This document shows, piece after piece, positions 60,487 through 64,000 of a stretch of 64,000 nucleotides of DNA (position 1 is the first letter of the stretch; each line of letters opens with the position of its first letter). The notes below the pieces were generated by a model. It was not told the origin of the DNA and ran no database searches. It saw nothing but the letters and a program-made list of their open reading frames with translations. The DNA is from Candidatus Brocadiia bacterium. GTDB taxonomy: Bacteria; Planctomycetota; Brocadiia; CAIUPP01. Made by a program: the position numbers and the translations under genes. The stretch covers positions 184,180 through 248,179 of the forward strand of contig JBEKCB010000002.1 in NCBI GenBank assembly GCA_050015075.1, read 5' to 3'.

Positions 60487-60762
60487 ATGGCGGACCTCAC
60501 AGAGCTTCAGTCCGACCTCGCCGGCGTCAAGGCGACCATCCGCAACATCGTCGCCAATGGCGTCTCGTCCGTGGGTCGGTCGGGGCGCCAGGCAACGGTT
60601 CTCGATCTGCCAGCGCTCCAGCGGCGCGAGAAAGACCTGATGCAGCAGATCGCCGCAGCCCAGGGCGCGTATCAGCCCGTCGGCGTCCGCTTCAAGGAAG
60701 TCCCCGGCGCTGGCGTCACGGCGTTCGACCCGGAACACAACTACATGGGGCCAGGGATATGA
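60487..60762 (+). CDS. Head-tail joining protein (gpW-like)
   Basis: Small helical protein between terminase and portal with a GR......DL..L...E..L pattern. Its stop overlaps the portal ATG. Confidence 0.65.
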   Translation: MADLTELQSDLAGVKATIRNIVANGVSSVGRSGRQATVLDLPALQRREKDLMQQIAAAQGAYQPVGVRFKEVPGAGVTAFDPEHNYMGPGI

Positions 60763-63700
60763 GCAGGCGACTGGAAAACCTGATCGCCTCCGTCGCCCCG
60801 GGCTGGGCCGCCGCCCGCGCCGCCAACCGCCTCCGTCTGAGCTTCTCAGAGCAGAAGGCCGAGGCCATCGCCGAGATGCTCGCGATGGCCGCCCACGACT
60901 CGGCCGAGTACTCGCGCGTCACCGCCGACTGGAACACCCGCCTTCTGTCGAGCGACCAGGCCGTCATCGCCGACCAGCCGACGGCCATCGCCCGCTCGCG
61001 CGATGCCATCCGAAACGACGGGACCGCCGGCAGCATCGTGGACGCCCACGTCCGGCACACCGTCGGGATCGGGATCACGCCCAGGGCGAACGCCCGGCAT
61101 CCGCGCACCGGCGTTCAGCTTCTTGAATTCAACCACGCCGCCGACCGCGTCTGGTATCAGTGGGCGCGCGACAAGAACCTCTGCCACACCGAGCGCCACT
61201 GGAACTTCACCGGCCTCGAAAGCCTGACCGTCCGCGAAGAGGTCACCACCGGCGTCTCGTTCGCCATCTTCAACTACACCCCGCGCGTCAATGACATCGG
61301 CACCCATATCCAGATCGTCGAGTTTGAGCAGCTCGTCGCCTGGCTCGTCAAGAACCCCGACACCGGCTTCTGGATTCGCAACGGCGTCGAGATCGACGAC
61401 TTCGGCGCGCCGGCAGCGCTCTGGGTCTTCACGAAGGGGCATCCGCTCGAATACATCCAGGGCCGCATGGCGTACACGCGCGTCCCCTGGGACCGCGTCC
61501 TCTGTTCCATGAGGCCGGAGCGCGTGCGGCAGTCGCAGGGCATGGGTCGTCTCTCGCCCGTTCTTCAGCCGTTACACCATAACAAGCTCTACGAGCTGTA
61601 TTCGGTCCTCCGCGCGAAGATCGAGTGCATCGCCGGCGCGAGCATCGAGTCCGACCATGACGCGCTGCCGCCGGGTCCGGGGCAGGACCTCTTCGGCGGC
61701 GCGGGTGCGAACAGTCCCGGCGGTCCCTACATGCGGGAGAAGGACATCAGCCTCCAGCCGGGCATGATCGTCCCGCTCGCCCCAGGCCGCACGATGAAGT
61801 TCCACGAGCCGACCACGCCGGGCAGCCAGTACCAGCCCTTCACCCGGACGCAGATCACGAAGATCGCCGCCGGCGCGGGCCTGGATTACCCGACCGTCGC
61901 CCGCGACTTCACCGGCATGACGTACAGCGGACAGCTCCAGGGCCGCCTCGAGACGTGGGCCGAAACCGACCCCGCGCAGCTGCGCCTCGTGGACGACTTC
62001 TGCCGTCCGATCCGGGACAAGGTGATCACGCTGGCGATCCTCGAAGGCCGCCTCGAAGCGCCCGGCTTCGACAACCCGGAATGGCGCGCGGCGTACCTGG
62101 AAGCGGAATGGCGCGGGCCGAAGAAGGGCAGCATCAACCCCGCCAACGACCGCGCCGCCGACAAGATCGCGCTCGACTACAAGCTGACCACGCGCCGCGA
62201 CATCCTCAACGAGGAGAACCTCGACGTGCGCGAGGTCGTCACGCAGCTCTCCGACGAATACCGCATGGGCGCGGAACAAGACCCGCCGGTGAACTTCCCT
62301 GACGCGCAGCCGGACCCGGCGGTCAGTCCGAGCGAGCCGAGGCCGGGCGCGCAGGATGACCGGCAGAAGAAGGGCCTGTCGCTGGCCGCCAACGTGGGCG
62401 AGTTGCTCGACCGGATCGAGAAGCTCGAGCAGGCGAATGTGGCGCTGGCGGCGGGCTGGGACGAGTCGAAACACCCGCGCGTACCCGCAGGTCAAGCCGG
62501 AGGCGGGCAGTTCGGTGAAGGCGGCAAGGGCGCGACGGAGAAATCGAAAGAGGCCCACGGCGCCAGCGCGAAGGCCATGAAGGAATCCGCTGCCGGTGAT
62601 GACAAGGCTGGCGGCGAAGCGTCCCGCGCGGCCGACGACACGCTGGAGTCAAAGGCTGCGGCGGCGATTGGAAAGCGCGAGTGGTGGCACGTTCCGCCTG
62701 AAGATAAATCGGCCTATGCGAAACGGGGCAAGTTCTACTCGTCCAGCTTTGAAGAAGCCGAGTTCTACGGCATTCGCGGCGACGCCAAACCCGAACGCGT
62801 TGAAGTGAATCGCCCGCTCGTCGGCGACGAACTGCACATTGAAAAGACGCTCTTGGGCCGCCATGCATCGGCAGACTTGCCAGATCCGGGCGACAAGGAA
62901 TTCTACAAGGCGAGAACGGACCTCGACCACGAGCTGGCAACCGAAGCGCGGCGGGCGGGGTACGACGCAATCGCGCTGCTGACGCCGAAAGGGTTTGCGG
63001 CGTTTCAGAAAACGGGGCGACTGCCGAAGAGCGTCGAACTGAACACACTTTCCGACGTGGGTGCCGCTGCCGGCCACGTCGAAGCGCTTCCGCTGCCGCC
63101 CAAGGACGCCCCGGAAGAACTGAAGAAGCTCTACCGGGAACGGCAGCGCGCATACACGGCCGCGCGCAAGCCTGGTATTTCCGATGACGAGCGCAAATCT
63201 CACGAAGAGCACGTCGCGGACTTGAAGGCCCAGATCGACAAGGCTCGGAAGGATCACCCGGAGTGGTTCGCCAAGGGGCCGGGCCAGGACAAGCCGCCCG
63301 CCGAGAAGCCCGGAGCGCCTCCTGCAAATCCTCCGGGAGCGAAGACCGCGAAGGGCCTGAAGCAGCAGTTCAAGGAACACCAGGGCAGCAGCCTTCGCTT
63401 CATGCACCTCGACCACGAGGTCGACCCGGATGAGAGGCCTGCGGACTTCGTCAACAAGACCTATTTCGAGATGGCCGACCGGGTGGACGGGGCCTTGACC
63501 GCGACTCGCTCCCAATTCGGGAACGACTTCAAGCTGCGGTGCGAGCGATCCCCGCTGCGGAAGTTGGAGGTGTCCGATGCCGGAACGCTCGTCTACAGGG
63601 GCAAGGACGGCAGGCAACATTCCGATGCCGTGGGCCTATACGACCCGTGGAACAACCACATCACCGTCGCGGCGGCGTACCTCGACCATCGGCAATACGA

Positions 63701-64000
63701 CAGCCCGCGCGTCGGCAGGTGGGTCGTGGACGACACGTTCGAGGGGACGGTCCGGCACGAGTTCGGGCACTACGTCCAGGACCACCTGCTGAGCAATAAA
63801 GAACTGACGCTGTGGATGCAGAAGTTCAACGACGTGGACTTGAACCCCTCTGCCCCCAAGAACGCGATTGCGAAGCACATCTCCAAGTACGCCGCGACGA
63901 GCAGCAAGGAATGCTTCGCGGAATCCTTCTGCGCCTACACGCACCCCGGATACCGGCGCGGAATGCTGCCGCCGGAGTTCGAGGACTTCTTCGACAACCT
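60759..64000 (+). CDS. Lambda-family portal protein fused to ART-like and zincin metallopeptidase domains (3' partial, >1080 aa)
   Basis: Manual translation from ATG 60759 found no stop to the window end. Portal motifs ARSRD..RND, GVE.D..G.P.A, R..Q..G, IAAG.GL.Y..V..D.....YS and W..P....I.P..D. These are followed by WDESKHPR, an ART-like segment and HEFGH...ISKYA...ECFAESF. Confidence 0.85.
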   Translation, partial: MSRRLENLIASVAPGWAAARAANRLRLSFSEQKAEAIAEMLAMAAHDSAEYSRVTADWNTRLLSSDQAVIADQPTAIARSRDAIRNDGTAGSIVDAHVRHTVGIGITPRANARHPRTGVQLLEFNHAADRVWYQWARDKNLCHTERHWNFTGLESLTVREEVTTGVSFAIFNYTPRVNDIGTHIQIVEFEQLVAWLVKNPDTGFWIRNGVEIDDFGAPAALWVFTKGHPLEYIQGRMAYTRVPWDRVLCSMRPERVRQSQGMGRLSPVLQPLHHNKLYELYSVLRAKIECIAGASIESDHDALPPGPGQDLFGGAGANSPGGPYMREKDISLQPGMIVPLAPGRTMKFHEPTTPGSQYQPFTRTQITKIAAGAGLDYPTVARDFTGMTYSGQLQGRLETWAETDPAQLRLVDDFCRPIRDKVITLAILEGRLEAPGFDNPEWRAAYLEAEWRGPKKGSINPANDRAADKIALDYKLTTRRDILNEENLDVREVVTQLSDEYRMGAEQDPPVNFPDAQPDPAVSPSEPRPGAQDDRQKKGLSLAANVGELLDRIEKLEQANVALAAGWDESKHPRVPAGQAGGGQFGEGGKGATEKSKEAHGASAKAMKESAAGDDKAGGEASRAADDTLESKAAAAIGKREWWHVPPEDKSAYAKRGKFYSSSFEEAEFYGIRGDAKPERVEVNRPLVGDELHIEKTLLGRHASADLPDPGDKEFYKARTDLDHELATEARRAGYDAIALLTPKGFAAFQKTGRLPKSVELNTLSDVGAAAGHVEALPLPPKDAPEELKKLYRERQRAYTAARKPGISDDERKSHEEHVADLKAQIDKARKDHPEWFAKGPGQDKPPAEKPGAPPANPPGAKTAKGLKQQFKEHQGSSLRFMHLDHEVDPDERPADFVNKTYFEMADRVDGALTATRSQFGNDFKLRCERSPLRKLEVSDAGTLVYRGKDGRQHSDAVGLYDPWNNHITVAAAYLDHRQYDSPRVGRWVVDDTFEGTVRHEFGHYVQDHLLSNKELTLWMQKFNDVDLNPSAPKNAIAKHISKYAATSSKECFAESFCAYTHPGYRRGMLPPEFEDFFDN

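Follow-up and report, generated by a model that had tools for sequence, protein, structure and literature searches.

A prophage gene in “Candidatus Brocadiia bacterium” encodes a lambda-family portal protein that continues, in frame, into a long multidomain tail. The gene occupies positions 60759 to 64000 (forward strand; the last full codon ends at 63998) of the 64,000-nucleotide (nt) stretch of DNA analysed here, which is referred to below as the window (contig JBEKCB010000002.1 of GenBank assembly GCA_050015075.1, positions 184,180 to 248,179). The fusion is real and is conserved across four independent assemblies. Its tail contains a domain predicted to have the ADP-ribosyltransferase (ART) fold, followed by a putative zincin metallopeptidase, both set behind conserved boundary elements. 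We consider it probable (roughly 0.6) that the C terminus of this portal carries a phage-type polyvalent cargo tail, whose two enzymes would be packaged, released, and injected to act on the host.

In-frame fusion of the portal with a multidomain tail

Starting from the ATG at 60759, which overlaps the stop codon of a small upstream gene (60445 to 60762), the frame runs for 1,080 codons with zero stops up to the final base of the window, just as an earlier note on this DNA, made from the sequence alone, had described. That base is also the final base of the contig (C2; 248,179 nt in an assembly of 66 contigs and 4.64 Mb), so the missing stop codon reflects the limit of the assembly. Two close homologues, P0002 (92% identical) and P0068 (96% identical), continue for 33 residues beyond the last residue of the window protein and then terminate. 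The full-length protein is thus expected to have approximately 1,113 amino acids (aa), with the peptidase as its last domain and about 33 codons cut off by the contig end. All the sequence motifs singled out in the earlier note (WDESKHPR, WWHV, SVELNTL, GLYDP, HEFGH, and ECFAESF) lie exactly where it had placed them.

The portal domain comprises aa 1 to 534 (60759 to 62360, + strand), as judged from Pfam, PHROGs, and matches to phage records. The Pfam domain Phage_portal_2 (PF05136) covers aa 53 to 404 (E = 3.1e-71, 240.8 bits versus a cut-off of 32.9, profile positions 3 to 351 of 354), and phrog_21 (portal) spans aa 5 to 534 (E = 5e-78). The portal matches 611 phage records at E ≤ 1e-10, all with less than 60% identity (24 to 29% among the 25 listed). 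Among these 25, the match ends at query residues 478 to 537, and some of them adjoin a maturation-protease gene. Pfam searches at E ≤ 1 found no Phage_Mu_F or other MuF domain (PF04233, PF06152, and relatives) in the portal-cargo protein, in agreement with the earlier statement that none lies between the portal and the tail.

The description of this protein as a lambda-type portal joined in frame to a multidomain tail is supported both by the PF05136 match and by an IMG/VR locus, L006, which is collinear with the window protein from portal residue 171 to the peptidase. Identical residues fill 770 of the 990 aligned columns (78%), and gaps are confined to one low-complexity linker. The C-terminal part of the tail (nt 63081 onward), and this part only, is found at 100% identity in IMG/VR locus L005 and in metagenomic locus L007. 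The earlier note had named a stop or frameshift near 62270 to 62450 as a finding that would refute the fusion; there is none at the portal-tail junction. Logan contigs from four peat-metagenome runs, which come from four studies and one of which may be the source sample, bridge positions 62147 to 62433 with 0 differences (one run only to 62387), and no inserted or deleted letters are listed in them anywhere along the open reading frame (ORF). The collinearity of L006, the identity of L005 and L007, and the bridging contigs together make a chimera or a frameshift very unlikely.

Three assemblies end within the last ~100 nt of the gene: counted in residues of the peptidase cassette described below, the window stops at 306, L005 at 298, and L007 at 283. 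This shared break probably represents a strain or repeat fork. A tblastn search of the same genome with the C terminus of a homologue found no contig carrying the last ~23 residues.

ART-fold middle domain

The middle domain of the tail, aa 628 to 770 (62640 to 63068, + strand), was delineated from HMMER clusters, an AlphaFold2 model, and fold matches; it includes the motifs WWHV (aa 642, nt 62682) and SVELNTL (nt 63030). A full HMMER scan of 1.84 billion representative sequences retrieved 106 clusters at E ≤ 1e-3, 47 of them at 1e-10. Relatives range from solo proteins of 130 to 200 aa up to polyvalent giants of 4,287 aa, and their partner domains include GNAT and ParB.

AlphaFold2 modelling on a 43-sequence alignment of the family (A2) gave a predicted local distance difference test score (pLDDT) of 94.2 and a predicted template-modelling score of 0.87. 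When this model was compared with PDB using Foldseek, the best rows were the anti-CRISPR protein 6kyf (the top match; E = 0.19, template-modelling score 0.42 to 0.45), a cyanophage pre-ejectosome protein, ParT, diphtheria toxin, and NatT. We take 6kyf to be AcrIF11, an ADP-ribosylating anti-CRISPR of the ART type. In VIA, a fold search independent of Foldseek, about 30 of the 45 listed rows belong to the ART superfamily (ART, RES, or PARP proteins), with MbcT at Z = 5.2 (110 aligned residues, root mean square deviation 4.0), NatT at 5.1, 6kyf at 4.9, and ParT at 4.3; further rows are diphtheria-toxin homologues, tankyrases, and PARPs. VIA Z values under 8 can reflect a common arrangement, and those obtained here are middling, so that the proposed ART assignment relies on the consistency of the list and not on the height of Z. 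Residues 1419 to 1598 of the cyanophage A4 pre-ejectosome (PDB 9k3a, chain B) also align to the model at Z = 5.2, as well as the best ART toxins do, which hints that ART-like domains may occur in ejection proteins seen in virions. In BFVD, a set of predicted viral structures, the list is headed by a “capsid maturation protease and MuF-like fusion protein”, an LPD-domain protein, and a number of proteins annotated as “ART-PolyVal-like” or “PolyVal ADP-ribosyltransferase” (probability up to 1.00, E from 1.3e-3).

In Pfam searches, ART-PolyVal (PF18760) is the only recurrent family, matching 6 of the 43 members of the alignment (best E = 2.7e-5), all under its 31.2-bit cut-off. A comparison of profile A2 with PDB sequences yielded only a chance SPOR-repeat match on GYDSI. 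The segment called ART-like in the earlier note is thus best described, from its modelled structure and these sub-threshold matches, as a predicted ART-fold domain that is a distant relative of ART-PolyVal and not a member by the Pfam model.

Residues conserved in alignment A2 are R656, G657, F659, G671, P686, D723, G734, D736 (invariant), I738, P756, E760, and L761; H644 (of WWH), which is replaced by R in some family members, and S661 to S663 are further conserved positions. The text of Iyer et al. (2017; PMC5512222) gives the ART-PolyVal active site as H in strand 1, Y in strand 2, and D in strand 5. Candidate counterparts in the window domain are H644 in strand 1, Y660 in strand 2, and D736 and E760 before or in later strands; the position of Y660 is mostly occupied by L across the family.

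Zincin-like C-terminal domain

The last domain extends from aa 878 to the end of the window (63390 to 63998, + strand). It contains GLYDP at nt 63633, the HEFGH motif at aa 1000 (63756 to 63770), Tyr1044 (63888 to 63890), and Glu1051 (63909 to 63911), the latter being the first residue of ECFAESF at nt 63909. Pfam comparison of aa 993 to 1067 returned Peptidase_Mx (E = 8e-5; 22.6 bits, cut-off 27) and ATLF (E = 0.092; 12.9 bits, cut-off 27.4), and no match to MPTase-PolyVal. A profile built from nine cassette sequences (A5) and compared with 177,635 PDB sequences retrieved a single family, the catalytic centre of anthrax lethal factor (E = 3.9e-4; other lethal-factor entries at E = 0.004 to 0.68). 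In the alignment, which spans only ~60 residues, the two HEFGH motifs coincide, the Tyr of SKYAAT falls on that of ..SYGRT.., and E.FAE.F falls on EFFAEAF. The lethal-factor residues Tyr728 and Glu735 are catalytic and zinc-binding.

Fold searches with a poor model of the peptidase gave lethal factor, Certhrax, PPEP-3, and a putative metal hydrolase as the highest-ranking matches, none of them significant, and the VIA rows were mostly unspecific helical hairpins. At the level of sequence, the Pfam and A5 results support the earlier recognition of an HEXXH zincin and suggest a peptidase of the lethal-factor/PPEP type.

Junction tag and portable peptidase cassette

The domains of the tail are separated by linkers and boundary elements. 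A Pro/Gln-rich linker (aa 508 to 539, 62280 to 62375, + strand) is replaced or skipped in some metagenomic variants: a joint 62287>62381, with 62288 to 62380 replaced, is seen in one contig each in two of the four Logan runs. Next comes a short helix that ends in ..VALAAG and is followed by the junction tag WDESKHPRVPAGQAGGGQF (together aa 540 to 585, 62376 to 62513, + strand; the tag itself, 62457 to 62513). The tag starts with WDESKHPR at aa 567 (nt 62457) and has the form WDESKHPR..GGQF. It leads into a low-complexity linker rich in Gly, Lys, Ala, and Glu (aa 586 to 627, 62514 to 62639, + strand). The length of this linker varies, L006 having about 75 aa more, and a second joint affects it (62494>62655, with 62495 to 62654 replaced), again in one contig each in two of the four runs.

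Behind the ART-fold domain, aa 775 to 845 (63081 to 63293, + strand) contain an invariant LPLPPKDAP segment (63087 to 63113) and a helical hairpin ending in ..HPEWFAKGPG. The hairpin was modelled with pLDDT of 81 to 88 in P0068 and has weak matches to scaffold-like families (PF06810, E = 0.02; phrog_194, E = 2.4e-4). A Pro-rich linker, KPPAEKPGAPPANPPGAK.. (aa 846 to 877, 63294 to 63389, + strand), connects it to the peptidase. The pattern LP[LV]PPK[DNQ]AP is present in 9 of the 9 cassette proteins checked, and the stretch ALPLPPKDAPEELKKLYRERQR is identical at 22 of 22 residues between the window protein and P0003, for an overall cassette identity of 48%.

These elements form a portable cassette, [tag]-[LP(L/V)PPK(D/N/Q)AP]-[hairpin ..HPEWF]-[HE.GH...Y...E.FAE.F], which is the most distinctive feature of the protein. 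The cassette is attached to a portal of another family in P0003 (PF06381, Phage_portal_3; E = 1.5e-50) and makes up solo proteins in P0068, P0095, and P0111, while P0077 consists of two tag-LPVPPK-hairpin-zincin units in perfect tandem. The tag and the peptidase without the LPLPPK segment are found in the MuF protein P0114 and in the type IB topoisomerase protein P0115. In P0113, a close relative of the window tail, the tag leads directly into LPLPPKDAP with no ART domain in between, which identifies the ART domain as an insert.

The tag likewise recurs at module boundaries. The window contains a single match to a strict WDESKHPR-type pattern, as does the genome as a whole. A looser pattern, allowing either a WDESKHPR- or a YDPSQPRD-type start, finds 16 tags in 9 of 115 proteins, a biased sample in which some proteins were retrieved via the tag itself. 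In four proteins, the tag is repeated 2 to 4 times between unrelated modules: there are four copies in P0005, which also contains two HE..H sites, three in P0006, where they follow an Acb1 domain (directed against the cyclic-oligonucleotide-based antiphage signaling system, CBASS), and two each in P0007 and P0077. The domains carried by tagged proteins include, along with the anti-CBASS Acb1, LPD1. Small residues (..AAG, ..ASG, ..AAA, or ..LAG) precede 9 of the 16 tags, 4 of these 9 being the window protein and three near-identical relatives. A literature search on the tag in phages returned nothing relevant, and neither the tag nor the LPLPPK segment turned up in text searches of Iyer et al. 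(2017; PMC5512222), whose supplements could hold them.

Metagenomic contigs point to the same modularity. In three of the four Logan runs, they diverge at exactly 63082 and 63114, the positions that bound the 33-nt segment coding for ALPLPPKDAP, and the foreign sequences flanking it are the same in each run; the segment is therefore common to at least one other genomic context. The summed Logan depth of the tail is two to five times that of the portal part, a measure of summed contigs and not of copy number. The forks, the variant joints, and the depth fit modules that are common to several phage strains.

Packaging module of the prophage

The portal-cargo gene sits in a packaging module downstream of a gpA-type terminase. 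Gene order in the window is small terminase, large terminase, ParB-methylase, an ORF without assigned function, a small gene, and the portal. The small terminase gene (54707 to 55243, + strand; phrog_57) is followed by that of the gpA-type large terminase (55198 to 57312, + strand), which contains GpA_ATPase and GpA_nuclease domains (Pfam E = 1e-46 and 1e-42), and by a gene for a ParB N-terminal domain fused to an N6/N4 DNA methyltransferase (57285 to 58718; phrog_498, E = 5e-124). This fusion gene lies between the large terminase and the portal and is probably an anti-restriction moron of the head module. A 428-aa ORF (58685 to 59971), which has no Pfam or PHROG match and lies in GC-rich DNA, may or may not be a real gene. 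The small gene in the gpW position (60445 to 60762, + strand), the one that overlaps the portal start, belongs to phrog_20307, a family of unknown function. Directly upstream of the small terminase, positions 53628 to 54596 encode an HNH endonuclease with an AP2 domain.

Locus L006 extends this order beyond the point where the window ends. A gene for a 961-aa capsid fusion protein (L006 positions 3090 to 5975) starts 69 nt past the portal-cargo stop codon and is followed by genes for a decoration protein, a neck protein, and the tail. In its C-terminal half, the fusion protein combines a scaffold-like part with a capsid part (Phage_capsid_4, E = 2e-34; phrog_4523, “major head and protease protein”). 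In the Brocadiia genome, the last 408 codons of the capsid gene open contig C48 with 96% identity, and pieces of a second related prophage lie on C58 (a portal fragment, 89% identity) and C64 (a capsid gene, 64%). From the order of head-module genes in the window and in L006, it follows that the portal-cargo gene encodes the structural portal of a lambda-like prophage rather than a spare copy; it is the sole portal gene seen in the packaging module.

Proposed function and competing explanations

The C terminus of a phage portal faces the capsid interior, and the portal ring consists of 12 subunits. Each subunit of the present portal would therefore hold two enzymes inside the head, so that the DNA-exit vertex would house as many as 12 copies of either one. 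The modules sit behind boundary elements, namely, the WDESKHPR..GGQF tag and, for the peptidase, also LPLPPKDAP and the hairpin. We propose that the zincin or a head protease would cut at the tag, at PLP|PK, or at both, either while still in the capsid or once the host is reached; candidate cut-site peptides are ALPLPPKDAP and VALAAGWDESKHPR. The freed modules would then exit with the DNA, and the ART could modify a host protein, nucleic acid, or the NAD+ pool early in infection, in the service of takeover or anti-defence.

Several observations weigh against this reading. No Foldseek match of the ART model to PDB reaches E ≤ 0.001, the BFVD matches are likewise above 0.001, and the VIA scores are middling (best Z = 5.2). 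The ART domain of the window protein has no Pfam match of its own at E ≤ 1, and the residues listed above are only candidates for its predicted catalytic site. For the peptidase, the Pfam matches stay under the gathering cut-offs, and AlphaFold2 modelling of the cassette on 8 sequences was poor (pLDDT 50.7, with 60 to 83 in the helices around HEFGH). The 3' end of the gene and the next ~1.8 kb are missing from the assembly. Finally, ART-less cassettes occur on two portal families, which could indicate that the cassette works in head assembly instead of acting on the host.

A bolder version of the proposed release step, which we regard as doubtful, makes the tag-LPLPPK-hairpin-peptidase unit a self-contained cut-and-release cassette. 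The zincin would then be a Pro-Pro endopeptidase similar to lethal factor and the PPEPs, with its own substrate, PLP|PK, at its N-terminal boundary, and would free the cargo of any carrier head protein, including portals of two families and possibly MuF proteins. The available text on PPEP-2, a relative of lethal factor, reports a preference for PLP|PVP (bioRxiv 10.1101/2024.03.15.585006), which makes the invariant PLPPK at the start of the cassette a tempting self-cleavage site; the link of the zincin to the PPEPs is speculative, as it draws on weak matches. If true, capsid-carried enzymes would have a general mode of release that has so far gone undescribed. A cut site at the boundary would explain how portal-tethered cargo is released and would offer a testable handle on junction tags across phage cargo proteins.

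An unlikely alternative to the cargo reading is that the cassette acts in head assembly, as a portal-tethered maturation or scaffold-removal protease docked by its scaffold-like hairpin, with the ART as a passenger and nothing injected. The fusion of ART-less cassettes to two unrelated portal families would fit such a role, as would the weak hairpin matches to scaffold proteins. Moreover, Pfam, PHROGs, and PDB sequence searches recognised no prohead protease in L006, which is not proof of absence, and the first ~430 aa of its capsid fusion have no match in Pfam, PHROGs, phage records, or PDB sequences. However, the capsid fusion matches PHROG families annotated as “major head and protease protein” and “head maturation protease”, and its aa 215 to 400 contain, by eye, a His...GLS pattern that we take to resemble those of HK97-type serine proteases. 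The peptidase is also found in tandem, with topoisomerase IB, and beside Acb1-type tagged proteins, all of which are cargo contexts, and to our knowledge no zinc prohead protease has been described.

It is less likely again that the tail is a polymorphic toxin for interbacterial competition, delivered to non-lysogens and paired with a cognate immunity protein, as proposed for MuF toxins. ART and metallopeptidase domains are common in MuF toxins, and Jamet et al. (2017; PMC5576092) report the latter in 20% of 191 putative toxins. Like these, the window protein is a head-module protein with C-terminal ART and metallopeptidase domains, and a relative of its peptidase is fused to MuF in P0114. The presence of the ART differs between close relatives, and the fold neighbours include the toxins MbcT, NatT, and ParT. 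In contrast to MuF toxins, the window protein has no MuF domain detectable by Pfam, and in L006 the interval between its stop codon and the capsid gene holds neither a gene-sized gap nor a supported small ORF. As to the earlier suggestion to look for variable C termini and immunity genes in relatives, the linkers vary in length and the internal ART is optional; the terminal peptidase is constant, and L006 has no immunity gene. With 69 nt leaving no room for such a gene and the C-terminal domain unchanging, the label “polymorphic toxin system” used in the earlier note is not supported, and the protein is better seen as a phage polyvalent cargo protein.

An artefact, in which a chimeric contig or a hidden frameshift joined a normal portal to a separate downstream gene, is essentially excluded: the contig does end within the gene, the genome does contain a second related prophage (C58 and C64), and metagenomic contigs do fork inside the tail, but the fusion spans the junction in both L006 and P0002 (with the tail part also present in L005 and L007), the four runs bridge it without differences or indels, and P0003 has the cassette on a different portal family.

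Relationship to known phage and toxin systems

The cargo reading places the window protein among the phage polyvalent proteins. The text of Iyer et al. (2017; PMC5512222) describes PBECR, 2H, and InPase domains fused to portals, unifies the metallopeptidase (MPTase) of polyvalent proteins with lethal factor by HHpred, and predicts that such peptidases act in autoprocessing and that portal and MuF fusions are packaged in the head; the text of a later study (Iyer et al., 2022; PMC9503650) adds ART, Nudix, and 2H domains fused to portal proteins. The idea in the earlier note that the portal is a new kind of carrier is thus not supported, as both portal-effector fusions and MPTase-centred polyvalent proteins are already in print. 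The window protein resembles those described in these texts in uniting multiple unrelated enzyme domains within a single head-module protein of a terminase-portal phage, in having a zincin MPTase as a hub domain together with an ART domain, and in being fused to the portal itself. It contains at least two unrelated effector-type domains, the predicted ART fold and the zincin, and the HEXXH motif (HEFGH at aa 1000) is followed by a downstream Glu helix (E1051 in ECFAESF). It differs in that a portal-MPTase cassette is not among the fusions named in the main texts, figures and supplements aside (PBECR, 2H, InPase, Nudix, and ART), in that its ART is below the Pfam ART-PolyVal cut-off, and in that its peptidase has no MPTase-PolyVal match.

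What is specific here is that the portal is of the lambda family, that the ART-fold family and the peptidase cassette lie outside Pfam and PHROGs, that the LPLPPK boundary is invariant, and that the phages come from peat and have no cultured relative. The known picture of polyvalent proteins is unchanged. The window contributes a clear-cut and conserved example of a structural portal bearing predicted enzymes, in phages of peat bacteria that have no cultured relatives, as well as two units that current Pfam and PHROG libraries miss, namely, the ART-fold family (106 representative clusters) and the peptidase cassette with its proline-rich boundary.

With peptidases of family M34 (lethal factor and PPEP-1 to PPEP-4), the putative zincin has in common, in the profile alignment, HEFGH and the downstream Tyr and Glu of a ..Y....E.FAE.F helix; the weak fold matches to lethal factor, Certhrax, and PPEP-3 point the same way. 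Unlike M34 peptidases, it is not secreted and sits in a phage head protein, and the aligned region is limited to those ~60 residues. T4 Alt and other capsid-packaged ARTs, as well as AcrIF11, offer a parallel as phage-carried or phage-made ART-fold enzymes for early action on the host. Unlike the window protein, T4 Alt is loaded via a capsid-targeting sequence rather than by fusion to the portal, and the window ART has no significant sequence similarity to these enzymes and likely belongs to a different clade.

Phyletic and metagenomic distribution

The tail is absent from the 3 other family-level genomes examined, and a tblastn search of 50,697 phage records with it found no match; the same was true of the N-terminal half of the capsid protein. 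A scan of the genome contigs with profile A3 gave 85 pattern matches, none of them confirmed. Word-index searches for the peptidase returned few relatives, and a metagenome scan yielded one locus only, identical to the window. RNA runs contained no more than minor parts of the window. Among 401 genomes sampled from the host phylum, matches to the cassette at E ≤ 1e-5 are found in 8, this genome among them, and in only one other genome does the match extend beyond the catalytic core.

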